Source of the DNA: Squalus acanthias
Lineage: Eukaryota
Assembly (NCBI GenBank): GCA_030390025.1
Contig: CM059431.1
Location: forward strand, 132,434,001-132,498,000
Reading direction: 5' to 3'
DNA: 64,000 nucleotides
The position numbers and the translations under genes are program-made. Numbering within the stretch: position 1 is the first letter of the stretch; each line of letters starts with the position of its first letter. The notes under the pieces are model-generated. The model did no database searches. It was not told where the DNA came from and saw only the letters and a list, made by a program, of their open reading frames with translations. Of this stretch, positions 2,860 through 62,449 are shown one piece after another.

Positions 2860-4085
2860 GCCAGGTATCCTGACTAAATAGGCATTTATCAGGTACGACT
2901 CCAGTCACTGGGTTACATTGCAGGGCTTCACCAGATTTATCCAGGTGCCTAAAACAAGACTTCAGAATGCCAGTAGTCTGCTCTATGACACTTTTTATTG
3001 TTGCATGGACCTTATTACATCTCATTCTGTCTATGAAAGCCTTAATGGTATCATTAGCCATGACAGCTGGGGATTGGCCTGATCACCAATCAACCATCCT
3101 GCTACATAGCTCCAAGTTATGAGGGCTGGTCTGTTAGGTTGTCACATGATGAAAGAGTCATGACTGTTTCCTGGCTATCAGGTGTTCATGTGCAGGGTAA
3201 GGTGATTTGATATCACACACTAGTGGGCTTAAAGCAATGAATGCTTTTTTGGTTCATAAAATTGAGAGGTTGTCCTATGGGGCTTTGAGCGCCATATATG
3301 TTACATCATTTGCTTCTAACATCGTGGGGATCCCACTAGTCTGTAGAACTGGATAGCTATTTCTCTTTTCTTATTCATGAGATATGAGCAAGGCAGAATT
3401 CATTGCCTATTCCTAGTTACCCTGAAGGCATTACGAATGAACCATATAATGAGGGACTAGAGTTACATGTAGGCCAGACCAGGTAGAAGTGGCAGGTCAC
3501 TTTACCTGAAGGACATTAATGAACCAGTTGGATTTTTTACCACAATCCAGCAGCTTTTGTGGTTATTTTATTGCCAGATTTATTGAATTCAATTTCAGAA
3601 CTTTCCATGAACTCTGAACTTCCAGGTTGCTCATCCAGCACCTCAATCACTAGGCTACCATACACTTTTGATTCTCTGACTCCGTTGGCAGTGAAATGAA
3701 TTATGCAGCCCTCCTGAATAGAGCACCTTTTTGATGCCGTGGTGGCAAAGGTCATCAGATGCTGCCTGGAAGGATCCAGTTGCAACTAAATTTACGGCAG
3801 TGGTGACCTTGACTGGTACAGACAATGCTAATCTCTTGGGGGAAGTGGGCTGCATGTCTTCAGCCAGCACTTGACATATTTCCCCAATGACATGGGAGGA
3901 GGGAGGGAAAACACAGAAACATTTGAGTAACAGCCTGTAAACCTGGGTGAGTTGGCATCTGCATGTAGGAAACAAATACATTCTATAACACCTCCCTCTC
4001 AGAGTTTCTAATTTAGTCTCTTCTATCTATCATCTTCCGCCTCTTCATAACAAGGAAAAGAACCATTACCATTGGGAAATCCATG
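2860..4085 (-). pseudogene. Degenerate Harbinger (HARBI1-like DDE) transposase, interrupted by a SINE
   Basis: Fragments VPVKVTTAVNLVATGSFQ and HATIKSVIEQTTGILKSCFRHLDKSG parallel the better-preserved transposase at 28804-29805. Confidence 0.75.
3360..3665 (-). mobile_element. Diverged tRNA-derived SINE built from the 5' and 3' ends of the tRNA-headed LINE family
   Basis: Body CTGGTTCATTAATGTCCTTCAGG...ACCTGGTCTGGCCTACATGT matches 39370-39450. Tail CAGGGTAACTAGGAATAGGCAATGAAT...CATATCTCATGAATAA resembles the LINE 3' end at 40340-40408. Confidence 0.75.
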
Positions 4086-17797: not shown

Positions 17798-20700
17798 ATG
17801 TGCTATATCTGTTGGGGGCCAGGAGGCCCTTCAGACACACACTCAGACGGCAATGGGAGCAGATAGCCCTGGCGGTCAATGCCAGGAGTCAAGCCCCGAG
17901 GACCTGGATGCAGTGCTGTAAGAAGTACAATGACCTCACACGTGTGGTGAAGGTTAGTGAATGCATCTTCAAATGCCTTATCCTGTAAACTGCACCACTA
18001 GCCTCAGCCACTGCTCAATGGACCACATCCCTATCACTCACCTACCAACAATCTCTATCAATCAGGACTCATCCCTAATATTTATAGCTTCACCTTACCC
18101 TCACACACTTAGTACTGCTGCAAGACTTACACCCATATCTCACACACACTGCCAGCTATTCAAGCATGACAGCCACATTACCCAAACAGATTGCATGACA
18201 CTCACTTCCCTGTCTTTTGCAGGACAAGATGGCACACAACCGGAGACAGCAGGAACTAACTGGTGGGGAACAGGCATGGCTGCATGTCCTTACCACATGG
18301 AGGAGACGGTGCTCGCCATCATTGGAGTGGCCGTTGCTGAGACCGTGGCCAGCGGTGGAGCTGAAACCATAGAAGGTGAAGGTATCCTCATACCTAATCC
18401 TCCTTCTCACATCCCACTTCCCCCTCCTCCCACAATATCTTCTGATTTACAAGCTGCAGATGGTATAAGCATGCACTTCTTAATTTCCCCGCTCCCCTCA
18501 CCACAACCTTACCCTTGTGCCTTTCTCCTTACGATACACAAGAACTGCCACCTGGCCAGTGGTGGAAGAGCAACAAGATACTGATGATGAAAAAACACTG
18601 TCACTCGATTTCACACTCGCAGCCACCAGCTCAGATACTGACACTGCGTGTAATTTAGAGGCTAGCTTAGAGGCGGTATCGGCACGTGGTGAGACAACGG
18701 GCACGAGTGACCTGCAGCCAGGTCATGGAGCAAGGGTTGCGCAGGTGCCAGCTCACAGGTGGGCGAGGTCGTACACGAGTTCTGCTGCACAGGACTCAGA
18801 TGAGCACTTCGATGGGGCGGCCTACAGAAGAAGGCTGATGGGTGTGCACAATGAAATGCTTGGTGCATTGGAAGGCCTGGCAGAAAGCCTGCGTGAAATG
18901 ACCAGGAGCATGGAGGAGTCCAGCATCAACTTTGGACAGGGCTTTGCGCAGAGCTTGGAGCCCATCCTTTCCAGCATGGAAGTGGTGTCCAACTCCATTA
19001 ACACACTTGTGGACCCAACCATGATGCAGTGTCTGATGGCCGATGTCTCAGCTTCCATTGAAGCACAAGCAGAATCCACCCAACCTCTGGGTGCTGCAGT
19101 GGAAGCTCAGACTTCTGTCATTCAAGGCCAGCTTGCTGCCACGCAAACTCAGACTGCTGCCATCATGGCTGCGGGTACCAATGTTCAAAGGGGCTTGCAG
19201 GGTTTCACAGCAGTCCAGCAATCTGTCCTCCAACAAATTACTAGCATTGCTGAGGCGCCGCCCCGGGGGAGTGGCAGTGGCTCCATGGAGCACGAACCTG
19301 CTGTTCTCTCTCAGGATGACAGCATTCATCCTCCCACCCCTGCCACTCAAGAGAGAATGAAATGTAGTCGGCTATCTTTGAATAGAGAGCCTCAGTGACC
19401 TCCCTTATGCAACAGTGGACAGCAAACTGGGAGATGTTGCAAATATCTCCAGCTCCAGCCTGGAAGGAGCCCGACGCATAAAAGCTCATCGTCACTTTCA
19501 CAGCCACTGGCAATGCGGTCCTCGCCCTGCTCTGAGGTTGCAGTTGTGGCTGCAGCAGGTGGCAGATTTCAGTGAAGACATTCTTATTGAAGCGCGGACG
19601 TCTCACAGACTGTTCCTTGCTGAGGTTCAGGAAGGAGAATTGCTCCCTGAACACTCTGGGCGGATATGATCTCCTGCTGAGAGCCCTTCTCCCCCTCCTG
19701 CTCCTCCCTCTTCTAGCAGCTTGTCCTGCTCTGTGTCACCTCTGCTCATTCTCCAAGTCATGCTGTATTCCAAGGGGGGTGCCTATGAATGCACCCACAT
19801 CTGAGAGCAACTGGTTTGCGCAGAAGCCTTGAAGTCAGGACAAAATCCTTCAGGACCTGCCACACCACGCCCTGTAGACTTTAGCAACTTTAAAGAAATC
19901 TAGAAAGCACCAAACACTTCCACAATCATAGTAACAGCCAGTAGAAATCAATCAGCAACGGACCTGAAACTATTTGATGATCTCTTTAAATAGTGCTGAC
20001 AGGGCTCCTTCCTGCTGCTAAACAAGTGTTTAGCTGTGTGAGCTTACAAGAGAGCCTTAGCTGGAGCATTGAGCTCCAAAATAGCATGCTGACATCAAAT
20101 CACCATTTCACGCTGATTGACGTCATGATCTGCCTACTCTGCATACTTCCGGCGGATGCTCACGGTGCACGCACTAACGTCTTCACCAACATGGCGGCTG
20201 GTGCGACTCATCGACTGACGCCAGAAGTGTATGTGCACGCCGTGGACGCCATTTTGGACCTCTAAGGCATTCGTAGCAACTAAAAAACTGCCGCTATGGA
20301 TCTGAATTTTGTGCCCATTCACTTTTGCTTCAAATGCCTAAACTTAAAGTTCACAGAGGTACTCACTGACTCTGATCTCTTCTATTGGCCCAGAATTTGC
20401 TGCCAAAATAATGGCGAGTGGAATTGCTCTAGCCATTGTTAACATTTAACTGTTAGTCAACCTCCTTCCTTCTATGGTTCACAACGACCTGCTTCGAGTA
20501 AGCATGAGACACTTGATGGTAGAGTATACGGAAAATACTTTATTCATAAACAGCATAAGTGATAGATCTGGCTGTGAAATTCAGCACCTTAGTGCCGGTA
20601 GTTATGCTTGGTTTTAAATAAAATAGCGTCTTCCTCGCCTCCACCCACTTCTGGCGCAGCCTGCGCTGTTGGTCATCTTGGTGAGGGCGATAGCGTGGGC

Positions 20701-22966: not shown

Positions 22967-25789
22967 ATGAAACCCCAGATCCCCGTTGCTCAACACCTTA
23001 CCATCCCTTTGTCAGGGAACATCACAGCGTCCTCTTAGCCACAATGCTGAATTGAAAGCCACCACAACACAAACATTCCAAACATAATTTATAAATGATT
23101 CAATCGAATACTGCATAACAAAGTCAACTAATCACCCTTGTGCATTCCCTTAGTGCCAGTCTTCCATGTACCTTTGCCTGTCCTAGTGCTCCTACACAGT
23201 GCTACCCCAGTGGCTGCAGCATGGCTGGAGGAAGGCTGCTGACTTTCAGTGGGGGAGACTGCAGATGGCCTCGAGCAGCTCTGGACCTAGAAGGTCCGGC
23301 TGCAGAATACATCACCTTGGCATGGGCGGCAGTAGTCTGGGCTGTCTGGCTGACAGGCAGCAGCAAGAGCAATGGTGGAGTGGCAGTGGTGGGAATACAA
23401 AAGCTGTCATCCTGAGAGAGGACAACAGGTTCGTGCTCCACGGAGCCACTGCCACTCCCCCGGGGCGGTGCCTCAACAAGCCTAGTAATCTGCTGGAGGA
23501 AAGATTGCTTGACTGTTGTGACACCCTGCAAACATCTTTCCACACTGGTAAACACAGCCATGATGGCAGCAAGCTGAGATTGCATGACAGAAGCCTGAGC
23601 TTGTGTGGCAGCAAGCTGAGCTTGCATGACAGAAGCCTGAGCTTCCACTGCAGCACTCAGATGTTGGGTCGCTTCCACTTGTGCTGCAATGGAAGCTGCA
23701 ACATCGCCCATCAGACCCTGCATCATGGTTGGGTCCACAAGTGCTCTAATGGAGTTGCCCATCACTTCCATCCTGGAAATCATGGGCTGCAAGCTCTGCA
23801 CAAAGCCCTGTGCAAGGATGGAGCTGAACTCCTTGCTCCTTGACAGTAACAACAGACTCTCTGGCAGGCCTGCCAATGCACCAAGCATTTCTGTGAACAT
23901 GCCCAGCACCCTTCTTCTGAAGGCCGCCAGATCGAAGTCTTCATCTGACTCCTCTGTTGCAGAGCCCGTGTGCGACCTCGCCCTCTGGGGAACTGGCACC
24001 TGTGCTACCCTTTCCCCCTGCCTTTGCTGCAGGCCACTCATACCTGGTGACTCACCACATGCCGATCCCAACGCTATACTACCCGCTAAAGTACGCCACG
24101 TGCCAGTTTCTAAGCTGGTGCCTGTGAGTGTTAGATCGAGTGACGGTGTCTCTTCTTCCCCGTCACTCTCCTCTTGTTTTTCCTGCGCTGGCTGGGAAGC
24201 ATGGTGTTCTTGGGTATCTGAAAGGAGAAAGGCATAAGGGTAGGGTTGTGCTGAGGAGGGTGGGGGGAAGCAAGATGTGCATGCTTACACCATCAGCAGC
24301 TTGTAAGTGAGAAGAGATTGTGGGATGAGGGGCAAGTGGGATGTGAGAAGGAGGATTAGGTATGAGCATACCGTCATCATCAATGCTTTCAGCCTCGCCA
24401 ATCGTCATGGCCTTATTGACGGTCTCTTCAATGATATCTAGCACAGTCGTCTCCAGCTGGGTCAGGATATGCAGCCGTGCCTGTCCTTCACCGGTTAGCT
24501 GCTGTTGTCTCCTGTTATGTGCCACCTTGGCCTGCAAGAGAAATGGATGTGTGTCAGTGAGTGTGGTGCAATGTGTTTGGGTGATGTGCTTGTCATGGTT
24601 GAATAGCTGGCAGTGTGTGCAAGGTGTGAGATGTGGGTGTGAGGCTTGCAGCAGTGGTAAGTGCGGAAGGGTGAGGTGAAGCTATGATTGTGAGGTGTGA
24701 GTCGTGATTGATGGAGATTGTTGGTAGGAGATTGATGGGGGTGTGGTGCATTGAGCAGTGTGTGAGGCTGGTGGTGCAGTTGGTGGGATATGGCATTTGA
24801 AGATGTATTCACTGACTTTGACCACTCGTGTGAGATCATTAAACTTCTTTCAGCACTGGATCCAGGTCCTCGGGGCAAGACTGCTGGCAGTGATCGCTTC
24901 AGCTATCTGCTCCCACTGCCTTCATACAGTGAGTCTGCAGGACCTCCTGGCCCCCTGCGGGTAGACGACCTGTGTCCTCCTTTCCACCCCCAATACTAAG
25001 GCCGCTAGTGCTGCATTTGAAAACCTAGGAGCCCTTTCTCTGTCCTGTTGTGCCATAGCTACCTTACAGTTGCCTTGACAACAATTATAATGATGTGCTT
25101 ATTTCAGAAAGCACCTCCCCTTTAAGAAGTGCAGACTGCGTTTCAAACTACAGGCTAGCTTTAAGTAAAGATCACTTCCCAAGGTATTGGGCCCCCTGCT
25201 GAGCACTCAGCCAACCAGCAGCGCGTTCAGCACTGGGCTCAGCGCTTCAATCATGTTAATTAGCAGGCAGCACAAATGTCGCGTGCTGCCTGCAATACTT
25301 TCAACGGGTGCAGGCAAATTGTGCATCGCGATCCCCATGCCCGTTTTCGGGCCTGATCGAATTTTTAGCCTCTATACTTTACACAGCGAGTGGCTTTCAA
25401 TTTCTGGGTCAATCTTTCGAGCCCTCTGAATAACTTTTGAAAACCATGCTCCTTTCTACAACTTAATTTGCCTACATTAAAGGCACATTTCACAGGTAAG
25501 ACCTCATGACGTATCTGTTCCTGAATCCTTTGAAAACAGTCTATTTACGTAAACAGTCGTAGTTGTTTACTTCAAAGATACTTTTCTTCCTGACTTAACT
25601 GTTCTTGAATCCTTTGAGGAGCAGTTTTATTAACCGTTATCAATCTATACCACAGTAAATGGATCCCTCTGCCTAGTTTTATTACACTAGCCATTAAAGT
25701 TTCACCGTAATCACTCATGCTTAATGTCTTCCCAGTCACTTATTTCCTTGCACAAGCATTTCTCATAGATAAGAAAGAAAGGGAGCTAT

Positions 25790-26900
25790 TTTGGCCGAAT
25801 ACTTTAGGCGCTAAAGAGGTAAAGAGGTGAAGAGGTGACCAAGCTGGGATCTTAAGCTGCAATGCCAGTTTAGCCTGCATTTAGCGCAAGACGCAATCTT
25901 GGTAAAGGAGTTGATGCGTGCGCTAGGAACGGTCGCCTGGAGGTTTGTTAAGTGGCTGATTGACAATTAAGTTGCTTGCTAGCACTCATTAAAGAGGCTA
26001 CATGCCATTTTGGTGGATAACGCTTAATTTAACAACCTCTCCTAACACCGATCAGCTGAGCAGGAGTAAAAAGAAAAGAAAGAAAGACTTGCATTTATAT
26101 AGCGCCTTTCACTACCACCAGACGTCCCAAAGCGCTTTAAAGCCAATGAAGTACCTTTTGAAGTGTAGTCACTGTTGTAATGTAGGAAACGCAGCAGCCA
26201 ATTTGCGCACAGCAAGCTCCCACAAACAGCAATGTGATAATGACCAGATAATCCATTTACTGTTGTTGATTGAGGGATAAATATTGGCCAGGACACCGGG
26301 GATAACTCCCCTGCTCTTCTTTGAAATAGTGCCATGGGATCTCTTAAACAAGTACTTGCTGAGAATTTCGAGCGCTACTTAAAGCTGTGCTCAGCTTTCA
26401 ATGGTCACGTGCAGATTGAGATCGACTGACTACACTGCGTTTGAAGAGGACTTTTTAAGACACATCGGGAGATTTTCTGAGACACTTTGTCACCAACACT
26501 CTATCAATATTTTTCCCGGATATTCTCTCAGGACTTCACCTAAAAAGAGTGAGTGCTACCCTACCTTATTGAACACCTTATAGGAGTCACTAGGAGCAAG
26601 GGCGTGGTTGGTTATGGGCATCTTGCTATGGGTCCCCCTTGCTCTGCGTGAGGAATTGGAGGAGGAGATGAGGCCGAGCAGAGCAGCACTAGCTGCTGCA
26701 GGAGGGAGGAACAGGAGAGCGAGGAGGACTCTCAGCAGGGGGCGCTATCCACCCAGGGTCTTCAGAGGGCAATACTCCTTAATTCACATGACCCAAGACC
26801 AGTGCATGAGGAGGCTGCACTTTACCAAGGAGGTCATCACAGAAATCTGTGGCCTTGTGGAAGGAAGACTCAGACGTCGCAGCACAGCCAGGACTGCATT
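25790..26900 (+). mobile_element. Truncated Harbinger with transposase N-terminus (26608-26900)
   Basis: RYPPRVFRGQYSL...QCMRRLHFTKEVITEIC...ARTA is homologous to the other transposase N-termini. Confidence 0.7.
26068..26345 (-). mobile_element. Deu-type SINE 3' half; a further 3' tail fragment lies at 26903-27010 (plus)
   Basis: Near-identical to 33488-33725. L2-like tail AAGGCGCTATATAAATGCAAGTCTTTCTTT. Confidence 0.8.
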
Positions 26901-27681: not shown

Positions 27682-30279
27682 GGGCTAGAAATTCATTATA
27701 GCCAAGAAATGGGCAGTGTTTAGATTAAAAATGGTTAAGCAGCGCCACCTGCAAATCATCTAGGATGCACGCAAAATTCATTCTCCTTCCTCAATAAAAT
27801 GATTGCAGTCATGATTCTCGTCTAAAAACGCAAGCTCATTGGTGTTGCACTGAAAAGCTGGACCAATATCGAGAGCAGTCTAAACGCAAGGAATGATTGC
27901 CACAAGCATTTTTCACCACTTAAAGGGGAGATTCATTGATGCTGTAGCATTTTCAGCATTGTTGGGTTTGCAGCTGCCTCAAAAACCATAAGAAGAAGGA
28001 CAAGGAGAAGTAGCACTTAATTTCAAACCCTGACGGCAGATCGCCACCCCAGGGAGAGAGCCCGGAGGTTTTCCGGTGAAGCTTTGGAGGCATTGGTTTT
28101 AGCAGTGGAGAGACGGAAGGCGGTCTTGTACCCGGCAACTGGCAGGAGGCACTCGCCACAAGTCTGCCAGACTATGTGGAGGGAGGTAGCGCAGCACGTC
28201 TTGGGCAGCACTGTGGTCCCCAGGATCCACACACAGTGCAGGAAGAAACTTAATGACCTCGCTCGGGTGGTCAGGGTGAATGAAGGTTTCAACAAATGCT
28301 ACATACCACCATCTGTACCACAATCTTCGGACACTGCTCAATGCACCACACCCCCAGCACTCACCCACCAACAATCTCTAGCAACACTCACACCCACATC
28401 TCATACCTTGCAAACAATGACAGCTATTCAACTATAGCAGGCACAAGGGTCATTAGTTATTAGAATTCATGTGATATGTGTGATATGTTTCTAAATAAAT
28501 TTATTAATTGTGTTTGAAATATTTTGTGGTCTCTTTCGTTTCAGCTTTGCACCCAGGAGGATGCTGTGATATGCCTAAGACAGGGATGGTATGATAGGGA
28601 TATGGGGAGCTACAGGGATCTGGGGTTTCATACATGTGAATCAGAGTCTGATGAGCTAGTCACAGACAGCCCGTCCAGAAGGCCGATTGTCTCACTGCCT
28701 CCTCCCTCCCTCCTGTTCCTCCTCCTCCTTGTCCTCTTCCTCCTTGTCCTCATCCTCATCCTCATCTGCCTCGTTGTCCTCCTGCAATCCCTGCTGGCAA
28801 GGGCTATGATCTCATGATGGCCAAGTTGTGGAGCAAGCAGCAGACCACCACGAAATGGGACACCCGCTCTGGCAAGTACTGGAGGGCTCCTCCTGAGCGG
28901 TCAAGGCAGTAGAACCGTTGCTTCAATAAGCTGATGATCTGCTCGATGATGTTCCTGGTGGCAGCATGGCTCTCATTATATGAGTGCTGGGCATGAGTGT
29001 TGGGGTTGCGGAGGGGAGTCATGAGCCAGGCGGAGAGCGGATAGCCCTTGTCTCCGAGTAGCCACCCTCGAGCTTGGCGTGGTGGCTGGAAGAGTGTTGG
29101 AACAGGATGGCGCAGGATGAAGGCATTGTGGCTGCTGCCAGGATAGCGGGCATTGGCATTAAGGATTTGCTGTTTGTGGTCACACACTAACTGCACATTA
29201 AGTGAGTGGTAGCCTTTGCGGTTACGGAAGATGTCAGGATTGTTATGCGGTGCCCGCAAAGCCACGTGGTTGCAGTTGATGGCACCCTGCAGCATGGGGA
29301 AGCCTGCTATCCTGGCAAAGCCACATGCGCGCTCATCCTGCTTCTCTCTGGTGATTGGGAAGCCAATGTAGTCCTTTCTCCTGCTGTAGATAGCCTCAGT
29401 AACCTCCTGGATGCAGCGATGAATGGCGAATTGTGAGATGTTAGCTATATCTCCTGTTGCAGACTGGAAGGATCCACTTGCAAAGAAATTGAGGGCCACA
29501 GTGACCTTGACTGCCACTGGGAGAGCCATGGTCACCCTGGTCTGAGACTGGAGGTCTGGTTGCAGGAGGTGGCAGAGTTCTGTGACCATCTCCTTGGTGA
29601 AGCGTAGCCTCCTAATACACTGCTCCTCGCTTAATTGAAGGTAGGAGAAGTGCTGTCGGAAGACCCTAGGAGGGTAAGGCTTCCTGTTGAGCACCCTGAT
29701 GGCCCTCCTCCTCCCTCTGCACACAAGTTCCTGTCTTTCTCGCTGCCTCCGCTCCCTCTGCCGTAGATCCTGGAGGGCGAGGTCGACTGCCAGTATGGCC
29801 CCCATGATTTGAGTGTTGTAGTTTGAAGCGTGTCAAAAATAAAGAGGGAGTTTTGTACTTGCCAGAACACTCCCTGATACCAAATAACTAAATAAAACTC
29901 TTGCAGTAGAAGGAAGTAGCACACAGCCACTCAAACTGCAAAACCCTGTCAGGTGCGAGTGATTGGTGATGATCCCTTTAAATATCGTCGCTGGAGCCGG
30001 CTTCCTGCTGCTGCACGCCACCTCAACCTGTCGTTACTTTCTCCAGCCAGTAACTGCAATGGCTCTAACGAAATTAGGAGATCGGGCATCAAGTGAGTGT
30101 TGCACACCCACTGATGTCATGATCTCCACAATTGCGATGTCCCCGGCGATCGAGTTTAGCTGCAGCAGTTCTGGCAACACGAAAATGGCGTGCACTGCTG
30201 GAACCGCCACCAGCTGACGATAAAGTGCCGACCAGCGTTTTCGTGCCATCTCGTGGCGCTAAACATGAATTTCTCCCCC
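27682..30279 (-). mobile_element. Harbinger with near-complete transposase (minus) and truncated Myb gene (plus, about 28040-28440)
   Basis: TIRs GGGCTAGAAATTCA / TGAATTTCTCCCCC. Myb exon ALVLAVERRKAVLYP...W..VAQ...TQCRKKLNDL. Confidence 0.85.
28804..29805 (-). pseudogene. Harbinger (HARBI1-like) DDE transposase, 333 aa open frame with D-to-N changes and a frameshifted acidic tail
   Basis: GAINCNHV (family consensus GAIDCTH), YHSLNVQLVCD, PGSSHNA, LLGDKGY, RNIIEQ, CCLLHN. Confidence 0.9.
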
Positions 30280-33221: not shown

Positions 33222-33487
33222 AAGTATTTCCTAAGAGTATTTCAGTGGAAGTGGGTGAGTTCAGGCTAAATGTGCAGCACCACAGAAATTGCGTCTAATC
33301 AACACTTGAGTCCTAAACTTGCAGGTTTCTGGTTAGCGTCTGCAGGCACGTTCAAATCATGATAATTATCAATTAGCCTGAAAATTGTGTGCTAAATCCG
33401 GACTTTCAAACAGGCATTTTTTATTAACACAGCACCCGTTTATCGCCTGTTTTCACCCTTTGGCCAAAATAACCCCCAGAGACCTGA

Positions 33488-33922
33488 AAGACTTGAATTT
33501 ATATAGCGTCTTTCACGACTTCAGGACGTCTCAAAATGCTTTACAACCAATGAAGTACAGTCGCTGTTGTAATGTAGGAAACGCAGCAGCCAATTTGCGC
33601 ACAGCAATGTGATAATGACCATATAATTTGTATTTTACTGATGTTGATTGAGGGATAAATATTGGCCAGGACACCGGGGATAACTCTCCTGCTCTTCTTC
33701 GAAACAGTGCCATGGGATTTTTTACATCCACCTGAGAGAGCAGAAGGGGCCCTTGGTTTAACGTCTCATCCGAAAGATGGCACCTCCGACCATGCAGCAG
33801 TCCGTTAGTACTACACTGGATTGTCAGCCTAAATTTTTGTGCTCAAGTCTCTGGAGTGGGACTTAGAACCCACAACCTTCTGAGTCAGAGGCGAGAGTGC
33901 TACCAACTGAGCCACAGCTGAT
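33488..33922 (-). mobile_element. Full-length tRNA-derived Deu-domain SINE (SacSINE1-like) with an L2-type tail
   Basis: Minus strand: A box TGGCTCAGTTGG, B box GGTTCTAAGTCC, central TCGGAGGTGCCATCTTTCGGATGAGACGTTAAACC, tail GCTATATAAATTCAAGTC shared with the L2 at 1199. Confidence 0.85.
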
Positions 33923-35943: not shown

Positions 35944-36567
35944 TCATAAATAGAGGCATAGAGTACAAAAGCAAGGAAGTTATGATGAAACTTTATAAAA
36001 CACTGGTTCGGCCACAATTGAAGTATTGTATCCAATTCTGGGCACCGCACTTTAGGAAGGATATGAAGGCCTTAGAGAGGGTGCAGAAAAGATTTACAAG
36101 AATGGTTCCAGGGGTGAGGGACTTCAGTTACGGGGATAGACTGGAGAAGCTGGGGTTGTTCTCCTTAGAGCAGAGAAGGTTGAGAGGAGATTTGATAGAG
36201 GTGTTCAAAATCATGAGGGGTCTAGACAGAGTAGATAGAGAGAAACTGTTCCCATTGGTGGAAGGGTCGAGAACCAGAGGACAAAGATTTAAGGTGATTG
36301 GCAGAAGAACCAAAGGCGACGTGAGGAAAAACATTTTTACGCAGCGAGTGGTTATGATCTGGAATGAACTGCCTGAAAGGGTGGTGGAGGCAAATTCAAT
36401 CATGGCTTTCAAAAAGGAATTAGATAAGTACCGGAAGGAAAAAAATTGGAAGGGCTATGGAGAAAGGGCGGGAGAGTGGGACTAGCTGAAGTGCTCTTGC
36501 AGAGATCTGGCATGGGCTCGACAGGCCGAATGGCCTCCTTCTGTGCTGTAACCATTCTATGATTCTA

Positions 36568-39500
36568 TGGATGTGGGCGTCGCTGGCAAGGCCAGCATTT
36601 ATTGCCCATCCCTAATTGCCCTTGAGAAGGTGGTGGTGAGCCGCCTTCTTGAACTGCTGCAGTCCGCGTGGTGAAGGTACTCCCATAATGCGCTTAGGAA
36701 AAGAGTTCCAGGATTTTGACCCAGCGATGATGAAGGAACGGTGATATATTTCCATGTCAGGATAGTGTATGACTTGGAGGGGAACTTGGAGGTGGTGGTG
36801 TTCCCATGCACCTGCTGCCCTTGTCTTTCTAGGTGACAGAGGTCGTGGGTTTGGGAGGTGCTGCCGAAGAAGCTTTGGGGTGTTGCTGCAGTGCATCTTG
36901 TAGATGGTACACACTGCAGCTATGGTGCGCCGGTGGTGGAGGGAGTAAATGTTTAAGGAGGTGGATGGGGTGCCAATCAAGCGGGCTGCTTTGTCTTGGA
37001 TGGTGTTGATCTTCCTGAGTGTTGTTGGAGCTGCACTCATCCAAGCAAGTGGAGAGTATTCCATCACACTCCTTACTTGTGCCTTGTAGATGGTGGAAAG
37101 GCTTTGGGGAGTCAGGAGGTGAGTCACTCACTGCAGAATGCCTAGCCTCTGACCTGCCCTTGTAGCCACAGTTAAGTTTCTGGTCAATGGTGACCCCCAG
37201 GATGTTGACGATGGGGGATTCAGCGATGGTAATGCCGTTGAATGTCAAGGGGAGGTGGTTAGACGCTCTCTTGTTGTAGATGGTCAGTGCCTGGCACTTG
37301 TGTTGTGCAATCATTAGCGAACATCCCCACTTCTAACCTTATGATGGAGGGAAGGTCATTGATGAAGCAGTTGAAGATGGTTGGGCCTAGGACACTGCCC
37401 TGAGGAACTCCCGCAGTGATGTCCTGGGGCTGAGATGATTGACCTCCAACAACCACAACCATCTTCCTTAGAGCTAGGTATGACTCCAGCCAGTGGAGAG
37501 TTTTCCTCCTGATTCCCATTGATGTCAATTTTACCTGGGCTCCTTGATGCCACACTCGGTCAAATGCTGCCTTGTTGTCAAGGGCAGTCACTCTCACCTC
37601 ACCTCTGGAATCCAGCTCTTTTGTCCATGTTCAGAGCAAGGCTGTAATGAGGTCTGGTGCTGAGTGGTCCTGGCAGAACCCAAACTGAGCATTGGTGAGC
37701 AGGCTATTGGTGAGTAAGTGCCGCTTGATAGCACTGTCGACGACACCTCCCATCACTTTGCTGATGATTGAGAGTAGACTGATGGGGCGGTAATTGGCCG
37801 GATTGGATTTGTCCTGCTTTTTGTGGACAGGACATACCTGGGCAGTTTTCCACATTGTCGGATAGATGCCAGTGTTGTAGCTGTACTGGAGCAGCTTGGC
37901 TAGAGGCGCGGCTCATTCTGGAGCAGAAGTCTTCAGCACGACAGCCGGGATGTTGTCGGGGCCCATAGCCTTTGCAGTATCCAGTGCGCTGAGCCGTTTC
38001 TTGATATCATGTGGAGTGAATCGAATTGGCTGAAGACTGGCTTCAGTGATGGTGGGGACTTCAGGAAAAGGCCGAGATGTATCATCCATTCGGCACTTCT
38101 GGCTGAAGATGGTTGCAAACGCTTCAGCTTTGTCTTTTGCAGTCGTGTGCTGGGCTCCACCCTCATCGAGAATGGGGATGTTCATGAAGCCTCCTCCTCC
38201 CATTAATTGTTTAATGGTTCACCACCATTCACGACTGGATGTGGCAGAACTGCAGAGCTTTGATCTGATCCGTTGATTGTGGTATCGCTTAGCTCTCTCT
38301 ATAGCATGCTGTTTCCACTGTTTAGCATGCATGTAGTCCTGTGTTGCAGCTTCCCCAAGTTGGCACCTCATTTTTAGGTACGCCTGGTGCTGCTCCTGGC
38401 ATGCTCTTCTGCACTCCTCTTTGAACCAGGTTTGGTCACCTGGTTTGATGGTAATGCTAGAGTGAGAGTTATATGCCAGGCCATGAATTAACAGATTGTG
38501 GTGGAATACAATTCTGCTGCTGCTGATGGCCCACAGCGCCTCATTGATGCCCAGTTTTGAACTGCTAGATCTGTTCTGAATCTATCAGAATGCTGTCATG
38601 GACAGATGCATATGTGACAGGTAGATTGGTGAGGACGAGGTCAAGTAGGTGTTTCCCTCGTGTTGGTTCTCTCACCACCTGCCGCAGTCCTAGTCTGAAA
38701 GCTATGTCTTTCAGGACTCAGCTAGCTCGGTCAGTAGTGGTGCTGCCGAGCCACTCTTGGTGATGGACATTGAAGTCCCCCACCCAGAGTACATTCAGTG
38801 CTCTTGCTACCCTCAGTGCTTCTTCCAAGTGGTGTTCTACAAGGAGGAGTACTGATTCATCAGTTGAGGTAGGGTGGTAGGTGATAATCAGCAGGCGGTT
38901 TCCTTGCTCATGTTTGACCTGATGCCATGAGACTTCATGGGGTCCGGAGTCAATGTTGAGGACTCCCAGGACCACTCCCTCCCGACTGTATACCACCGTG
39001 CCGTCACCTATGGTGGGCCTGTGCTGCCGGTGGGACAGGACATACCCAGGGATGTTGATGGAGGAAGCTGGGACATGAGCTGAAAGGTATGATTCTGTGA
39101 GTATGACTATGTCAGGCTGTTGCTTTACTAGTCTGTGGGACAGCTCTCCCAATTCTGGCACAAATCCCCAGATGTTAGTGAGGAGGACTTTGCAGGGTCG
39201 ACTGGGCTGGATGTGCCGTTGTCGTGTTCGAAGCCGGTGCCTTGGTCGATGCCGGGTGGTCCGTTCGGGTTTATTCTTGTTATTGTTTCTTGTAGCAGTT
39301 TGTTACAACTGAGTGCCTTGCTTGGCCATTTCAGAGGGCAGTTAAGAGTCAACCACATTGCTGTGGGTCTGGAGTCACATACAGGCCAGACCAGGTAAGG
39401 ACGGCAGATTTTCTTCCCTAAAGGACATTAGTGAACCAGATGGGTTTTTTACAACAATCCGGTAGTTTCACGGTCACATTACTGATACTAGCTTTTTATT

Positions 39501-39604
39501 CCAGATTTATTTAATTAACTGAATTTAAATTCACGTCTCTGGATCAGTTAGTTCAGGCCTCTGGATTACTAATCCAGTAACATAACCACTATGTTACCGT
39601 TCCC
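36568..39604 (-). mobile_element. Full-length tRNA-headed, single-ORF CR1-group LINE (SINE-like head, Arg-rich leader, APE, RT); decayed copy
   Basis: tRNA-like arms at 39561-39597. ATG at 39329 is in frame with VLLTNIWG, ILTESYL and VGDFNVHH (APE). RT motifs NYRPISLLS, AFDRVWH and GVPQGSVLGP. C-terminal HHHLLKGN. No ORF1. Confidence 0.88.
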
Positions 39605-41995
39605 ATGGTGGAAGGATGGATGCTGTCATCCTGAGAGAGGAGAGCAGGCTCGTGCTCCATGGAGCCACTGCCACTCCCCAGGGGTGACACCTCAGCAATC
39701 TGTTAGAGAACAAATTGCTGGACTGCTGTGACACCTTGCAAACCCCTTTCAACACTGGTAACTGCAGCCATGATGGCAGCAGTCTGTGCTTGTGTGTAAA
39801 AAGCTGACATTGCATGACTTCAGTCTGAGCTTCCACTGCAGCACTTAGACATTGGGTGGCTTCTGCTTGTGCTGCAATCCCATCTACAAGGCACAAGTCA
39901 GGAGGGTGATGAAATACTCTCCACTTGCCTGGATGAGTGCAGCTCCAACAACACTCATGAAGCTCGACACCATCCAAGACAAAGCAGCCCGCTTGATTGG
40001 CACCCCATCCACCACCTTAAACATTCACTCCCTCCACCACCGACGCACCGTGGCTGCAGTGTGTACCATCTACAAGATGCACTGCAGCAACTCGCCAAGG
40101 CTTCTTCGGCAGCACCTCCCAAACCCATGACCTCTACCACCTAGAAGCACAAAGGAAGCAGGCGCATGGGAACACCACCACCTCCAAGTTCCCCTCCAAG
40201 TCACACACCATCCTGACTTGGAAGTATAACGCCGTTCCTGGGTCAAAATCCTGGAACTCCCTCCCTAACAGCACTGTGGGAGTACCTTCACCACACAGAC
40301 TGCAGCGGGTTCAAGGCGGCGGCTCACCACCACCTTCTCAAGGGCAATTAGGGATGGACAATAAATGCTGGCCTTGCCAGCGACGCCCACATCCCATGAA
40401 CGAATAATTTAAAAAATGGAAGCTGAGACTTCGGCATTCAGACACTGCGTGATGGTTAGGTCCACAAGTGCGCTAATGGACCTGTCCCCCACTTCCACGC
40501 TGGAAAGGATGGGATCCAAGATCTGCGCAAAGCCCTGTGCAAGGTTGGTGCTGGACTTTTCAATGCTCCTTGACATTGCATTCAGGCTTTCTGGCAGGCC
40601 TGCCAATGCACCAAGCATTTCATTGTTCATACCCATCAGCCTTCTTCTGTAGGCCGCCCCATCGAGAACCTCATCTGAGTCCTGTACAGCAGACCATGTG
40701 TATGACCTCGCCCTCCGGGGAACTGGCACCTGCGCTGCCCTTTCCCCCTGCCCTGGGTTCAGCCCACTCGTGCCCGGTGACTCACCACGTGCAGTCTCAG
40801 CCTCTATTCTACCCTGTGAGTGTGAGATCGAGTGACGGTGTTTCTTCATCATCACTGTCTTCTTCCTCTTCTACCACTGCCGATCCAGGTTGGAGTTCTT
40901 GGGTATCTAAAAGGAGAAAGGGGCAAGGGTAGGGTTGTGGTGAGGGGAGGGAGAAAGTAAGAGGTGCATGCTTATACCATCTGCAGCGTGCAAATCGGAA
41001 GAGATTATGGAATGAGGGGGAAATAGGATGTGAGGAGTATTAGGTATGAGCATACCATCATCTTCAATGGTTTCAGCCCCACCGCTGGCCACGAGCTCAG
41101 CCATAGTTGTTCCAATGATGGCGAGTACCATCTCCTCCATGGAGTAAGGACATGCCTGTCCCCCTCTGGTTAGCTGCTGCTGCCTGCGGTTGGACGCCAC
41201 CTTGTCCTGCAAGGAAGAGGGAAATGTGTCAGTGAGTGTGGAGCCATGTGTTTGGTTGATGTGGTTGTCATGGTTGAATAGCTGGCAGTGTGTGCAAGCT
41301 GTAAGATGTGGGTGTGAAGCTTGCAGCAGTAGTAAGTGTGTGAGGGTGAGATGGAGCATATGAATGTGAGGTATGAGTCGTGATTGTTGGTAGGTGAGTG
41401 ATGGGGTGCAGTGCATTGAGCAGTGTGTGAGGCTAGTGGTGCAGTTGGTGGGATATGACATTTGAAGATACATTCACTGGCCTTGACCACTCATGTGAGG
41501 TCATTGAACTTCTTTCGGCAATGCATCCAGGTCCTCCTGCTGACATTTACCTCAACAGCTATCTGCTCCCACTGCCTTCACAGTGTCTGTCTGGAGAGCC
41601 TCCTGGCCCCCTGCGGATAAAGGACCTTTCTGCTCCTGTTCACCTCCAGCACTAAGGCCTCCAATGCTGTGTCAGAGAACCTTGGAGCCCTCTCTCTGGC
41701 ACGTTGTGCCATTCCTGTTTCTTTGCCAGGTCGAACTTACTTTTGGAATGACTTCCAGCGCTTGCTCTCGTCAACCTGCACCTCCCCTTTAAGAGGTGCA
41801 GGTTGGCTTTAAGAGTGCAGGCTAGCTTTAATTGGTGCTAGCCTTGCACGAACTTGGTCCCCCTGCTGAGCGTTCAGCGCTGGGCTGCACGCTGCAATCA
41901 GGTAAATTATCAGGCAGCACGATGTTTGTGTGCGCAGGTTAATTACGCATCGCGATCCAGGTGCCCATTTTTGGGGGCATTCAAATTTTTTGCCT
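39605..41995 (-). mobile_element. Harbinger fragment with spliced Myb gene (ATG about 41712), truncated by the LINE at 39604 and interrupted at 39878-40415
   Basis: Homologous to the Myb genes of 14975-20316 and 20570-25372. End TCAAATTTTTTGCCT. Confidence 0.82.
39878..40415 (+). mobile_element. tRNA-headed LINE family 3' fragment
   Basis: IYKAQVRRVMKYSPLAWMSAAPTT and the complete 3' tail ...GCCCACATCCCATGAACGAATAATTTAAAAAA. Confidence 0.9.
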
Positions 41996-45265: not shown

Positions 45266-46749
45266 TACGGATGCTGCCTGACCGGCTGAGTATTTGCAGC
45301 ATTTTCTGTCTTCTCAGAGACCTTCCTTTACCATCCAAAGCCTTTCAAGTGTCCAGCAGCACTCCCTGTACTCCCTGCACACTTTAACAACTTTTTAGAT
45401 GTATTGCACTAAGCCACTACTTCAATAAAATAGTAAAAATCCATCCAAAAACTGAAATCCAAACTTACCCGAAAGATGTGTGTGTCCCTTTAAGAACTGC
45501 TGCACGGCTGCTTCACGCACGTTTTTCTGTGTGTATTTAGCACAGGGTGTTATGGTGTACGAGAACGTCCAAAACAACAGTCGTGGCATCAAATCAGGCG
45601 TTGCATGCTGATTGACATCACAATCTGCTTATTTAAATTTGAGAGGCCAGCGCTGTAAACGGGCAGAAGCGAGGCGGCCGCCATTTTTTCAACAAAACCG
45701 GCCTTAACTGATGGCGCTACACCGGGGAATTTCTAGGCCAACATGTTTTTAAGCTAATAAATCAACTATTAAACTTGTATGAATCTGAAGCTAATACCTG
45801 GTAAAATTCCATGGTGTGATAAAAAAACAAATACAAGTAATCATTACATAAGTTGTTATTAATTAATGCTATCACAACAATGTCTATGTTATAATTAATG
45901 TCAACACTGTGCTTCAAAGTGATTTATTGTATGTGAAGTGTTCTGAGCTATTCTGAGAGGCTTGTGCTATAGAAATGCAAGTCTTTGTAAGTATTGTCAT
46001 TGCCATTAAAACATTCTCTAAAATATCTACATTTGCCTAAGTAATAAAGTTGTTACATCCCTCAAAATATTAAGTGGCCGAGAAACCACGCCTGAAGACG
46101 TTGGCCCAAGACATTTTTAACATTTTTAACATTTTGCATTTTTGTTTCCTTTTGCTTGTCTCTTCGGATCTGCTGGTATGCAATTATCTCTCACAATGGT
46201 TAAGTTGTATGAACTGTTTTTCATGGTAGATGTATCTGCTTTTCCACGCAGTCTACTGCTCCCAGTATATCTGTTTTCCTTGGTGGTTTAGTGCCTCTGA
46301 ATGTTCCCTAGCATTCTACCTATTTATATACTGTTACGTTTTAAAGTAAATTTAGGAATTAGATTCATCAAATGAGATTGTCAGATATTTCAAAGTCCAA
46401 ATCTAGCTGAATGACGATCTGTGGTATTCCGAGATATTTGCTTGGTTGAGCAGTGCTAGGGTAGAGCTGATTATGAATCTAGATTTACAGAACATGGGAA
46501 AGTGTTTTTTTCTCACAGGCCTCAAGATGTGGTTTTTCTTTTCTTTTGTTCGATGTTATTAATTCTGAAGCAGTTGATAATATTTTGTGGTCCAAACTCT
46601 GGAATTATATTATTTGGGTGATAGGGGAGGGGATGTTTCTGTAATGCTTATTTGGTGTTTCGAGCAAAATCGTAAGTGTGTTCTTTGAAAATGTTTTTGT
46701 GATTTGACTAGAAATACAAACAGACGAAATCTTCACAAATACATCTACA

Positions 46750-47080
46750 ATTTTTTCATTTATTCATTCATGGGATGTGGGCGTCGCTGGCAAGGCCAGC
46801 ATTTTTATTGCCCATCCCTAATTGCCTTTGAGAAGGTGGTGGTGAGCCACATTCTTGAACCGCTGCAGCCCGTTTGGTGAAAGTACTCCCACAATGCTGT
46901 TTGGGAGGGAGTTACAGGATTTTGACTCAGCAACAATAAAGGAACAGCGATATATTTCCAAGTCAGGAAGGTGTGTGACTTGGAGGGGAAATTGGAGGTG
47001 TTGGTGTTCCCATGTGCTTGCTGCCCTTGTCCTTCTTGATGGTAGAGATTGTGGGTTTGGGAGATGCTGTCAAAGAAGCA
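46750..47080 (-). mobile_element. tRNA-headed LINE family 3' fragment
   Basis: Family 3' tail with (TGAA)n/A-rich end. Confidence 0.85.
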
Positions 47081-47171: not shown

Positions 47172-50112
47172 TGTTCAAACCTCTACAAGAAACTATAATA
47201 AGAATAAAACCAGACGGACCACCTGGCATCGACTGCGGTAACGGCTTCGGACGTGACAATGGCACACCCAGCCCAATTGACCCTGTAAAGTCCTCCTCAC
47301 TAACATCTGAGGATTTGTGCCAAAATTGTGAGAGCTGTCCCACAGACTAGTCAAGCAACGCCTGACATAATCATACTCAAAGAACCATGGTGCAGAAATT
47401 CCGATCCCTACGGGTGTGTACGCGCTGCGTACTCACCCGTAGGGACATGGGAAATGCCGGTTCAGCCAATGTCCCAGATTCCTCTATCACAATCCCTGGG
47501 TATGTCCTGTCCCACCGGCAGGACAGACCCACCAGAGGTGGTGGCACAGTGGTATACAGTCAGGAAGGATTGGCCCTGGTAGTCGTCAGCATTGACTCCG
47601 GACCCCATGAAGTCTCATGGCTTCAGGTCAAGCACGGGCAAGGAAACCTCCTGCTGATTACCACCTACCGCCCTCCCTCAGCTGATGAATCAGTACTCCT
47701 CCATGTTGAACACCACTTGGAAGAAGCACTGAGAATAACAAGGGCACAGAATGTCCTCTGGGTGGGGGATTTCAATGTCCATCACCAAGAGTGGCTCGGT
47801 AGCACCACTACTGACCGAGCTGGCCAAGTCCTGAAGAACATAACTGCCAGTCTGGGCCTGCGACAGGTGGTGAGAGAACCAACACGAGGGAAAAACCTTC
47901 TTGGCCTCGTCCTCACCAATCTACCTGTTGCAGATGCATCTGTTCCTGACAGTATTGGTAACAGTGACCACCGTACAGTCATTGTGGAGACGAAGTCTCG
48001 TCTTCACACTGAGGACACCCTCCATCGTGTTGTGTGGCACTACCACCATGCTAAATGGGATTGATTCAGAACAGATCTAGCAGCTCAAAATTGGGCATCC
48101 ATGAGGCGCTGTGGGCCATCAGCAGAAGCAGAATTGTATTCCACCGCAACTGTAAACTCATGGACCGCCATATCCCTCACTCTACCATTAACATCAATCC
48201 AGGCAACCAAACCTGGTTCAATGAGAAGTGTAGAAGAGCATGCTAGGAGCAGCACCAGGCATACCTAAAAATGAGGTGCCAACCTGGGGAAGCTGCAACA
48301 CAGGACTATATGCATGCTAAACAGCGGAAGCAGCTTACTATAGATGGAGCTAAGCGATCCCACAGCCAACGGATCAGATCAAAGCTTTGTAGTCCTGCCA
48401 CATCCAGTCGTGAATGGTGGTGGACCATTAAACAACTAATGGGAGGAGGAGGCTCCATGAATATCCCCATCCTCAATGATGGTGGAGCCCAGCACGCGAG
48501 TGCAAAAGACAAGGCTGAAGAGTTTGCAACCATTGTCAGCCAGAAGTACTGAGTGGAAGATCCAGCTCGGCCTCCTCCTGAGGTCCCCACCATCACAGAA
48601 GCAATTCGTTTCACTCCAGGTGATATCAAGATACGGCTTAGTGTACTGGATACAGCAAATGCTATGGGCCCCGAAATATCCCAGCTGTTGCATTGAACTA
48701 GCCACGCCTCTAGCCAAGCTGTTCCAGCACAGCTACAACATTGGCAAGCACCTGACAATGTGGAAAACTGCCCAGGTATGTCCTGTCCACAAAAAGCAGG
48801 ACAAATCCAATCCGGCCAAGTACCGCCCCATCAGTCTATTCTCAATCATCAGCAAAGTGATGCAAGGTGTCATCGACAGTGCTATCAAGCAGCACTTACT
48901 CACCAATAACCTGCTCACCGATGCTCAGTTTGGGTTCTGCCAGGACCACTCGGCTCCAGACCTCATTACAGCCTTGGTCCAATCATGGACAAAAGAGCTG
49001 AATTCCAGAGGTGAGGTGAGAGTGACTGCCTTTGACATCAAGGCAGCATTTGACCGAGTGTGGCATCAAGGAGCCCTAGTAAAAGTGAAGTCAATGGGAA
49101 TCAGGGGAAAGACTCTCCACTGGCTGGAGTCATATCTAGCACAAAGGAAGATGTTTGTGGTTGTTGGAAGCCAATCATCTCAGCCCCAGGACATCGCTGC
49201 AGGAGTTCCTCAGGGCAGTGTCCTAGACCCAACCATCTTCAGCTGCTTCATCAATGACCAACCCTCCATCATAAGGTCAGGAGTGGGGATGTTCGCTGAT
49301 GATTGTACAGTGTTCAAATCCATTCGCAGCTCCTTAGATAAGTGCCAGGCAATGACTATCTCCAATAAGAGAGCGTCTAACCATCGCCCCTTGACATTCA
49401 ACAGCATTACTATTCCCGAATCCCCCAAAATCAACATCCTGGGGGTCACCATTGACAAGAAACTTAACTGGACCAGCCACATAAATACTGTGGCTACAAG
49501 AGCAGGTCAGAGGCTGGGTATTCTGTGGTGAGTATCTCACCTCCTGACTCCCCAAAGCCTTTCCACCACCTACAAGGCTCAAGTCAGGAGTGTGATGGAA
49601 TACTCTCCACTTGCCTGGATAAGTGCAGCTCCAACAACACTCAAGAAGCTCAACACCATCTAGGACAAAGCAGCCCGCTTGATTGGCACCCCATCCACCA
49701 CCTTAAACATTCACTCCCTCCACCACCAGCGCACCGTAGCTGCAGTGTGTACCATCTACAAGATGCACTGCAGCAACTCGCCAAGGCTTCTTCGACAGCA
49801 CCTCCCAAACCCATGACCTCTACCACCTAGAAGGACAAGGGCAGCAGGCGCATGGGAACACCATCACCCCCAAGTTCCCCTCCAAGTCACACACTATCCT
49901 GACTTGGAAATATATCGCCGTTCCTTCATCGTCGCTGGGTCAAAATCCTGGAACACCCTCCCTAGCAGCACTGTGGGAGTACTTTCACCACAAGGACAGA
50001 AGCAGTTCAAGAAGGTGGCTCACCACCACCTTCTCGATAGCAATTAGGGATGGGTAATAATGCTGGCCTTGCCAGCGACGCCCACATCCCAGGAACTAAT
50101 ATTTAAAAAAAA
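47172..50112 (+). mobile_element. tRNA-headed LINE family, near-full coding region (head missing), decayed
   Basis: Leader ATRN...RHR...PCKVLLTNI, APE (YRPPS, GDFN, SDH), RT (MFADDCTVF) and 3' tail with poly(A). Contains a MITE end at about 47387-47463. Confidence 0.9.
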
Positions 50113-57768: not shown

Positions 57769-58472
57769 GGCCGCGATTTCGCCGAGCGAGGCGGGTCCGG
57801 GGTGGCCGTGGTCGGTGTGGCGGGCCCAGCCCGTTGCCTGCTCCATCCCACTCTCTCTAAGTGATTTTCCGTTGATTGGGCTTGTTAAGCCCGCCCATGC
57901 GTTTCCTGGCAAATTAAAATGAAGCGGATCGGATGATGTCATTTGATGACACGTCATCAGCCGATTTCCTTAAAGGGACCATGTCCACAATCATTTTGAC
58001 AGTTGTGCTGTCAGTGTTCTACAGCATTGAGGTGCTGCAAACACTGACAATGACTGCACAGAGGTGCACGACTGCACCCAGGTTCTCCCATGACTCCCTC
58101 CATTTGCTTATGGAGGGAGTCACAGCACGCAGGGAGATTCTCTTCCCTTCCAATGGGTGGAAGAAACCTCCCCAGGAGACCAATGCAGCCTGGTTGTACA
58201 TTGCACAGGAGGGCACAAGCAGGGATGTTGTCAGGAGGACCAGGCTACAGTGGTGCAAACCTTTCAATGATCTCAGTAGATCTACAAACGTTACTGCCAA
58301 GCCACACTCAACCTCATCCTGCTGTACCACTCATCACATCCCCATCACTCTGCCTTCCCTACCCTACTCCTGCACATCCTTACTCACACCAACTTAACTT
58401 GCACCTCTACCCATCCCTCTCTATCTACATCCCCATCTCACTAGCCACCCCTCACACTCCACCCTCATCCTG
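57769..58472 (+). mobile_element. Harbinger left end with Myb exon 1, truncated by CR1
   Basis: TIR GGCCGCGATTTCGCC. Inverted sister of 5600-6316. Confidence 0.82.
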
Positions 58473-58494
58473 AAAGGCTCATAGAGTCATAGAG

Positions 58495-61374: not shown

Positions 61375-61498
61375 ACTCCCTTGTGCCGTTACATATTTGC
61401 TCTGACTTCCAGGTTGACTTGTTTTTTCCTCTATATTTGGCTGTGCATCACCCCCTACTATAGCTCCACTCTGTATCCCATCCCCCTGCCAAGTTAGT

Positions 61499-62449
61499 TT
61501 AAACCCCCCCCCCCACAACAGTACTAGCAAACCTCCCCGCAAGGATGTTGGTCCCGTTCCGGTTCAGGTGCAACCCGTTCGACTTGTCCAGGTCCCACCT
61601 TCCCCAGAAGCAGACCCAGTGATCCAGGAAACTAAAGCCCTCCCTCCTGCACCAACTCTTTAGCCACGCATTCATCTGCTCTATCCTCCTATTCCTATAC
61701 TCACTAGCATGTGGCACCGGGAGTAATCCAGAGATTACAACCTTTGAGGTCCTGCTTTTTAATCTGCTACCTAGCTCCCTAAATTCTTGTTGCAGGACCT
61801 CATCCCTCTTTCTACCCATGTCGTTGGTACCAATGTGAACCACGACCTCTGACTGTTCGCCCTCCCCCTTCAGAATGCCCTGCAGCCGTTCAGTGACATC
61901 CTTGACCCTGGCACCAGGGAGGCAACATACCATCTTGGAGTCACGTCTGCAGCCACAGAAACGTCTATCTGTTCCCCTTACGATAGAATCCCCTATCACT
62001 ATTGCTCTCCCACTCTTTTTCCTCCCCTCCTGTGCAGCTGAGCCACTCGTAGTGCCACGGACTTGGCTCTTGCTGCATTCCCCTGAGAAACCATCTCCCC
62101 CATCAGTATCCAAAACGGAAAATCTGTCGGAGAGAGAGATGGACCCAGCGGACTTCTGCACTACCTTCCTAGTTCTTTTACTCTGTCTGGTGGTCACCCA
62201 TTCCCTGTCTGCCTGTGCACTCTTTACCTGCGGTGTGACCAACTTGTTAAATGTGCTAGCCAAGAAGATCTCAGCTTCACAGATGCTCCACAGTGACTCC
62301 AGCCGCAGCTCCAGCTCCGAAACATTGATTTCGAGTAGCTGCAGCTGGAGACACTTCCTGCACATGTGTTCGCCCTGGACACCTAAAGTGTCCCTGACTT
62401 CCAACATAGCACAGGAGGAGCACTCCACACTGTCGAGCTGCCCTGCCAT
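61499..62449 (-). CDS. CR1 ORF1 protein: CxxC/CxxC zinc finger, leucine zipper, SGNH esterase domain
   Basis: CSSC...CRKC, heptad Leu repeat, IGDSIVRG, HIGTND, GLHLN. Confidence 0.88.
   Translation of the reverse strand: MAGQLDSVECSSCAMLEVRDTLGVQGEHMCRKCLQLQLLEINVSELELRLESLWSICEAEIFLASTFNKLVTPQVKSAQADREWVTTRQSKRTRKVVQKSAGSISLSDRFSVLDTDGGDGFSGECSKSQVRGTTSGSAAQEGRKKSGRAIVIGDSIVRGTDRRFCGCRRDSKMVCCLPGARVKDVTERLQGILKGEGEQSEVVVHIGTNDMGRKRDEVLQQEFRELGSRLKSRTSKVVISGLLPVPHASEYRNRRIEQMNAWLKSWCRREGFSFLDHWVCFWGRWDLDKSNGLHLNRNGTNILAGRFASTVVGGGV

Follow-up and report, generated by a model that had tools for sequence, protein, structure and literature searches.

Bipartite LINE-derived SINEs, whose two parts resemble the 5' and the 3' region of a single LINE, are represented in the available part of Kojima 2018 (PMC5786205) by Bov-tA/Bov-B, CoeSINE4, SINE2_Gav and SINE2-1_EC, with RTE partners, and by SINE2-1_ACar, with a Vingi partner. 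The same text derives SINE middles from RTE and Vingi only, the partners for which the original prediction for the present locus had called bipartite SINEs best known, and ORF-less bipartite elements from RTE, Ingi, Vingi and R2 only. Where SINE bodies come from is still an unanswered question, and the model of SINE birth published there, in which a deletion is followed by the addition of a head through template switch, rests on RTE and Vingi partners. The available text also describes RTE-1_DAn, a LINE whose tRNA-like sequence corresponds to the heads of SINE2 elements; such matches were treated as accidental and removed.

Several other tRNA-headed SINEs invite comparison. The V-SINE HE1 of sharks and rays has the partner LINE HER1, and SlmI combines a tRNA-Leu head with the partner LINE RSg-1 (PMC3747384, available part), and SacSINE1 and the CmiSINEs carry L2-2_CM tails (PMC5499810, available part). 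MetaSINE heads are reported to be nearest to tRNA-Thr, and among the 15 MetaSINEs named in the available part of PMC4824008 there is neither a shark element nor SlmI.

Here we describe a SINE from a 64-kb window of shark DNA, the window being the whole stretch that was analysed, together with a LINE of the same window whose two ends it resembles. Like the bipartite SINEs in the available text of Kojima 2018 (PMC5786205), it joins a putative tRNA-derived head, a LINE-5' body and a LINE-3' tail, and its partner has a single APE-RT frame. Unlike those SINEs, whose LINEs are headless and whose small-RNA head is added after the deletion, the present LINE itself bears the head, and by resemblance it falls in the CR1 group. 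The element works like a bipartite LINE-derived SINE, yet fails this one defining feature. We consider it probable that the SINE arose through internal deletion in an ancestral form of this LINE, one already tRNA-headed and devoid of ORF1.

Make-up of the short element and of the LINE

The features of the SINE and of the two LINE copies are collected in Table 1. In a search of the window against itself, the match of the short element was 39334-39468 (75% over 135 nt, E 2e-16). Local alignment of 3340-3690 with 39250-39650, both on the minus strand, gave a score of 155 with 174 of 230 positions identical, against 26.6 +- 3.6 for shuffled sequences, none of which (0/500) reached 155. Compared separately with the whole of LINE copy A, the body scored 143 (0/300 shuffles), the tail was best placed at 36622-36586 with a score of 43 (0/300) and the head aligned weakly with 39598-39566 (score 30, 6/300). 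Formal alignment had been named beforehand as the point on which the proposed relation could fall, and it proved significant for both LINE ends, body and tail carrying the signal. Scores of the tail against six LINE 3' ends were 46, 33, 51, 37, 45 and 50 at a shuffle mean of about 18, equalled by 0, 1, 0, 1, 0 and 0 of 500 shuffles, respectively. As in SINE2 elements, the 3' tail is common to the partner LINE and the end is A-rich.

Table 1. Coordinates of the short element and of the tRNA-headed LINE copies in the window
Feature	Position	Strand	Description
Short element (SINE)	3360-3665	minus	306 bases: head, body, tail
SINE head remnant	3590-3665	minus	A-box-like stretch at ~3647-3657, B box absent
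SINE body	3424-3589	minus	homologous to LINE copy A 5' region 39516-39334
SINE tail	3360-3423	minus	LINE's last three codons, stop, 3' UTR and A-rich end
LINE copy A	36569-39604	minus	~3.0 kb, decayed, tRNA-headed APE-RT; ORF stop 36614-36612
tRNA-like head of LINE copy A	39540-39604	minus	without recognisable T-arm or B box
Body and leader of LINE copy A	39290-39539	minus	5' breakpoints of short forms at 39290-39336
Endonuclease (APE) part of single ORF	38718-39302	minus	Pfam Exo_endo_phos, E 3.2e-9
LINE copy B	47176-50111	plus	86-88% like copy A; starts at leader, headless

Read from its 5' end, the SINE covers the first 271 bases of the LINE and then its last ~60 bases. Its start at 3665 is in register with the start of the LINE head at 39604, the body and tail matches adjoin at 3424/3423 with zero spacer, and both flanks are without LINE match (scores 31 and 32 at shuffle means of 30.6 and 32.6). 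The trinucleotide CTC lies on each side of the cut (LINE 39334 / 36623). The head and body motifs quoted in the original prediction were all recovered, and the direct run of the body into a diverged LINE 3' tail was borne out; homology of head and body to the LINE also held, although the shared 5' part is 39334-39604 and not 39370-39600 as first given. The statement that the SINE equals the joined LINE ends stood as to the two-part structure, but equality did not, since the parts are 24-38% diverged and several deletions have occurred.

Over 3424-3556 the body has 24% mismatch to the LINE (K2P 0.30), and the head is 33% diverged. The tail differs by 25-38% from the six LINE tails (25-29% for four of them), which are themselves 2-17% apart, so that body and tail have diverged to about the same degree. 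The SINE-to-LINE distance is two to three times greater than that between LINE copies A and B (K2P 0.30 vs 0.09-0.15). A scan with consensus patterns of the A and B boxes found an A-box-like stretch in the SINE head and a B box neither there nor in the head of LINE copy A, and an Rfam search of the SINE copy gave no tRNA match. A tail hairpin was predicted in all three LINE tails folded (z -1.35 to -2.42), about 10 nt of which are missing in the SINE copy; the body block folded no better than shuffles (z -0.44 and -0.92). The best target-site duplication for the SINE and for LINE copy A was an unconvincing 7-8 nt with a mismatch, and the 64-kb window holds no second copy of the short element. 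This SINE copy is an old, dead relic. The best-conserved block of the body (39432-39378 in the LINE and 3520-3470 in the SINE, both minus strand) contains a short ATG-started frame that shares the phase of the APE ORF in copy A, and one whale-shark gene model begins with the peptide of this block.

The head of LINE copy A starts sharply, a different neighbouring repeat ending at the 39605 boundary. It matched the Rfam tRNA model with 24.7 bits (E 0.0064), short of the gathering score of 29, and ARAGORN detected no tRNA in it; its loop would read AGU. Between head and endonuclease frame lie ~230 nt of body and leader. The single ORF sits directly behind this leader, leaving no room for an ORF1, and the ATG at 39329 shares the reading frame of the APE part, from which a single stop separates it in this copy. 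Copy B gave matches to RVT_1 (E 2.4e-28) and Exo_endo_phos_2 (E 3e-13). A LINE 3' fragment in opposite orientation, 46742-47079 (minus strand), lies ~100 bases before the headless copy B and is possibly a separate insertion that took away its head. We take the LINE to be of the CR1 group, an assignment by motif resemblance and not by a tree. Its RT is 26-32% identical to the other CR1-type ORFs of the window, and its four best long relatives (962-1195 residues) are 37-41% identical. One of the CR1-type elements of the window, 58479-62452 on the minus strand, is a conventional LINE in which an ORF1 of GDSL esterase type (E 3.6e-14) precedes the APE frame, in contrast to the tRNA-headed LINE, which is without ORF1. 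The sense strands of copies A and B contain 2 and 0 T-runs, and those of other CR1-type elements 18 and 5. Counts as low as those of A and B were matched by 100 and 24 of 200 dinucleotide shuffles, and because T-runs are thus no rarer than in shuffled sequence they were not counted as independent support for polymerase III.

Short forms and linkage to the ORF in public sequences

Copy A was compared with four of 24 public runs (X1, X15, X23 and X24), of which X1 and X15 consist of contigs and X23 of raw reads; that X15 is RNA is only a guess. Joints were taken from short unitigs at a likeness threshold of 80%. Among the 15 joints listed, out of 2531 in X1 and X15 together, eight link 36614-36662 to 39298-39336, with at least 30 letters on the shorter side in five of these eight, and seven are internal skips elsewhere. 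A ninth head-to-tail joint runs from 36689 to 39290. The forms ending at 39298 and 39290 keep leader sequence that is absent from the form ending at 39307, and five-base words are shared at two junctions (39311/36656 and 39299/36663). The 36623-39307 form was seen in five contigs, and its tail border is the same as that of our SINE copy. The junction of this copy itself (39334 to 36623) is absent among the 15 joints listed. Since relatives of the SINE, at ~75% identity, would mostly fall under the 80% threshold, amplification of its subfamily is not demonstrated by these joints, and the status of this exact junction as a candidate subfamily is unproven, with one instance in the window and the public joints listed.

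Summed depth, which is not copy number, was 1.4-2.2 million over head and body in X1 vs 0.74 million in the next ORF bin, and 51-70 thousand vs 5 thousand in X15; head and body therefore exceed the adjacent ORF in depth, though not necessarily in copies, by ~2-3 fold and 10-14 fold, respectively. X24 yielded no reads. X23 yielded 138, with no listed joint and a loose end in four reads at 36622 that is leader-like by eye (16/20 letters).

Beyond copy A, the body was found linked to the ORF in two kinds of record. One contig record of X1 (record 8) covers 39081-39405 with 61 differences and so provides an independent link between body and ORF. Among 162 proteins, APE residues are preceded by body-encoded peptides in the whale-shark gene models P0143 and P0119; P0119 stays open where copy A has the stop behind the ATG 39329, and two further short matches look like chance. 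As gene models can be spliced, P0143 and P0119 speak for linkage and not for the exact sequence. The close named homologues are fragments of gene models and all come from sharks (Rhincodon typus and Heterodontus francisci). Pieces of the APE frame of the LINE also lie inside shark gene models of unrelated genes (P0018, P0029, P0163 and P0164), where they are probably annotation artefacts. The exact body motif occurred in no stretch of the metagenome, viral and prokaryote contigs. In the metagenome contigs an RT scan found 80 distant loci, for the most part 22-38% identical, and neither the SINE nor the LINE head resembled any of them; a search for longer protein homologues gave none among 1826 candidates. 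Members of this abundant family may already be present in repeat libraries without having been interpreted.

Origin of the short element

Birth by internal deletion would proceed as follows. The LINE lineage would have gained a tRNA or tRNA-SINE head that replaced its 5' UTR and ORF1. Short microhomologies would then have let reverse transcription or repair jump from the 3' end into the 5' leader, with the loss of ~2.7 kb. Because the promoter head and the tail recognised by the RT are already on one RNA, each such deletion would yield a complete SINE without capture of a head. The LINE protein would, following established SINE biology, have copied the short RNA in trans via the shared tail hairpin. 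The copy has later decayed, with the B box and half of the hairpin gone. A deletion requires that homology to the LINE 5' part stop exactly where homology to the LINE 3' part begins, and in this copy the former ends at 39334 and the latter starts at 36622. The public contigs contain several breakpoints, some of them reaching into leader found only in the LINE, which favours repeated internal deletion; forms that keep the leader to 39290-39298 would have to derive from the long element. The linkage of body to ORF outside copy A, the greater depth over head and body than over the neighbouring ORF and the similar divergence of body and tail are further points in favour of deletion. The breakpoints on the 3' side, inside the ORF, have no discriminating power, as capture of a tail would give them too. 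The original prediction had left it as an either/or whether the SINE derives from the LINE or the LINE from its SINE's head: the two-part structure common to both options was upheld, and the zero spacer together with the breakpoints in LINE-only leader tilts the choice to the former. The headless copy B and the missing target-site duplication of copy A are arguments against deletion from a headed LINE.

In the opposite order, which we hold to be rather unlikely, a tRNA-SINE with a borrowed LINE tail pre-existed, the present copy being one of its old members, and the head and body of a younger subfamily later passed to the LINE through template switching, an accepted route of module exchange in the available parts of PMC4824008 and PMC5786205. 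The SINE copy is far more diverged than the LINE copies are from one another, which speaks for this order, and the head had to derive from a tRNA or a SINE at some time; whichever model holds, it must in the end go back to a tRNA or tRNA-SINE. The body may even predate the LINE, given that its short motifs are ordered as in the Deu-type SINEs of the window, a likeness that was marginal in two of eight alignments with the two Deu-type copies (12 and 19 of 500 shuffles) and non-significant in the other six; a profile search also missed the Deu copies. A capture must moreover have landed exactly on the border of body and tail, leaving neither spacer nor duplicated tail in the LINE leader, so that the abutment would have to be put down to chance, to within a few bases out of more than two hundred, and the leader retained down to 39290-39298 in short forms is left unexplained. 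The greater age of the SINE copy compared to the LINE copies fits an older SINE equally well; this copy descends from an earlier LINE or an earlier SINE, and a single copy cannot decide between them.

That an old full-length LINE insertion merely lost its middle at integration or later and never amplified, which would make the element a broken LINE and not a SINE, appears improbable to us. Its junction was seen at this locus alone in the window and the public joints listed, the copy has other deletions, internal deletions, tens to hundreds of bases long, also occur in the window's LINE copies, and the seven remaining joints among the 15 listed are likewise internal skips; yet the head-to-tail joints of two runs fall into two narrow zones, both of which a random deletion of 2.7 kb is unlikely to hit, and the tail border recurs in the form found in five contigs. 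We give the least credence, and very little, to copy A being a SINE and a headless LINE joined by chance, by which the SINE would be an ordinary tail-sharing element and its 5' match meaningless. Copy B does begin at the leader without a head, and copy A, without target-site duplication, is flanked by two different repeats, but an independent contig spans the junction of body and ORF, and body and APE are linked in two whale-shark gene models.

Returning to birth by internal deletion, the tail border shared with the 36623-39307 form means that the two may be one event and not two, and this copy may have come from that form by further shortening. The observations suggest that a single step, in which the coding middle is lost, can be enough here to give a short parasitic repeat. 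More tentatively, and somewhat short of an even chance in our judgement, a shark CR1-group LINE with a polymerase III head in place of 5' UTR and ORF1 may have acted as a standing SINE factory, each of its independent deletions, at differing times and breakpoints, yielding a SINE family of its own. If true, this would be SINE birth in one step in a clade other than RTE, Vingi, Ingi and R2, the present copy would be a relic of an early round, and the boundary between SINE and LINE drawn by polymerase would become blurred. In the present case all of the SINE, its head as well, can be placed on the two ends of a LINE that coexists with it and belongs to another group, and since several breakpoints coexist as well, the order of events can be tested by trees of the shared segments.

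Known families and neighbouring repeats

Like RTE-1_DAn and the elements related to it, the LINE is autonomous and carries tRNA-like sequence; RTE-1_DAn differs, in a comparison by description only, in being of the RTE clade and in that the available part of PMC5786205 describes no deletion SINEs for it. With HE1/HER1 (PMC3747384, available part) the pair shares the arrangement of a shark tRNA-SINE whose tail is common to a partner LINE; tails of the CR1_CM type differ from the present tail by eye, and HE1 and HER1 are set apart by description and not by sequence. The Deu-SINEs SacSINE1 and LmeSINE1 and the CmiSINEs are likewise tRNA-headed SINEs of cartilaginous fishes, but with an L2-2_CM tail in the available part of PMC5499810. 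Membership in the Deu-SINEs (SacSINE1 type) was rejected, as the Deu motif matched at 26328 and 33706 and not in this SINE, and the tail differs. Those two matches belong to Deu-type SINEs of the window, 26082-26346 and 33486-33900 (both minus strand), which are ~90% alike in their shared part; the latter retains a tRNA-like head, and both resemble the Deu alignment in the available part of PMC7245038.

The original prediction had likened the body to fish MetaSINE-type elements such as salmonid SlmI, with which it has in common a conserved body behind a putative tRNA head, as far as the available descriptions go; the AGU that the loop of the LINE head would read is a further point of likeness, to the MetaSINE heads reported as nearest to tRNA-Thr. 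The MetaSINE assignment did not survive: of the window matches to two Meta-domain consensus motifs (Fig. S4 in the available part of PMC7245038), 0/5 and 0/4 lay in the SINE or the LINE head, the 66-bp Meta domain being checked by these two motifs and not by full-length alignment. Kinship with SlmI, judged by description only, is doubtful. A SINE with the UCON3 domain was also discarded, the single motif match being at chance level and elsewhere in the window. We found no account of this SINE/LINE pair in the literature, the repeat libraries Repbase, Dfam and SINEBase lying outside the scope of that search, and three motifs of the window occurred in no paper and in none of the supplements searched.

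A CR1-type element on the opposite strand meets LINE copy A tail to tail at 36530-36569, its short-repeat end lying against the 3' end of copy A, and 794 records of X1 show that CR1-type short repeat as a loose end at 36530-36569; a similar contact of tail to body is found at 15917/15921. Dispersed repeats occupy 17800-19348, 23378-25273 and 39607-41920, the last with LINE pieces nested in it. A DDE_Tnp_4 transposase fragment at 28804-29832 (minus strand, E 3.9e-31) and a weak Myb/SANT-like match at 57918-58397 (plus strand) suggest, from their domain matches, putative DNA transposons of the Harbinger type.
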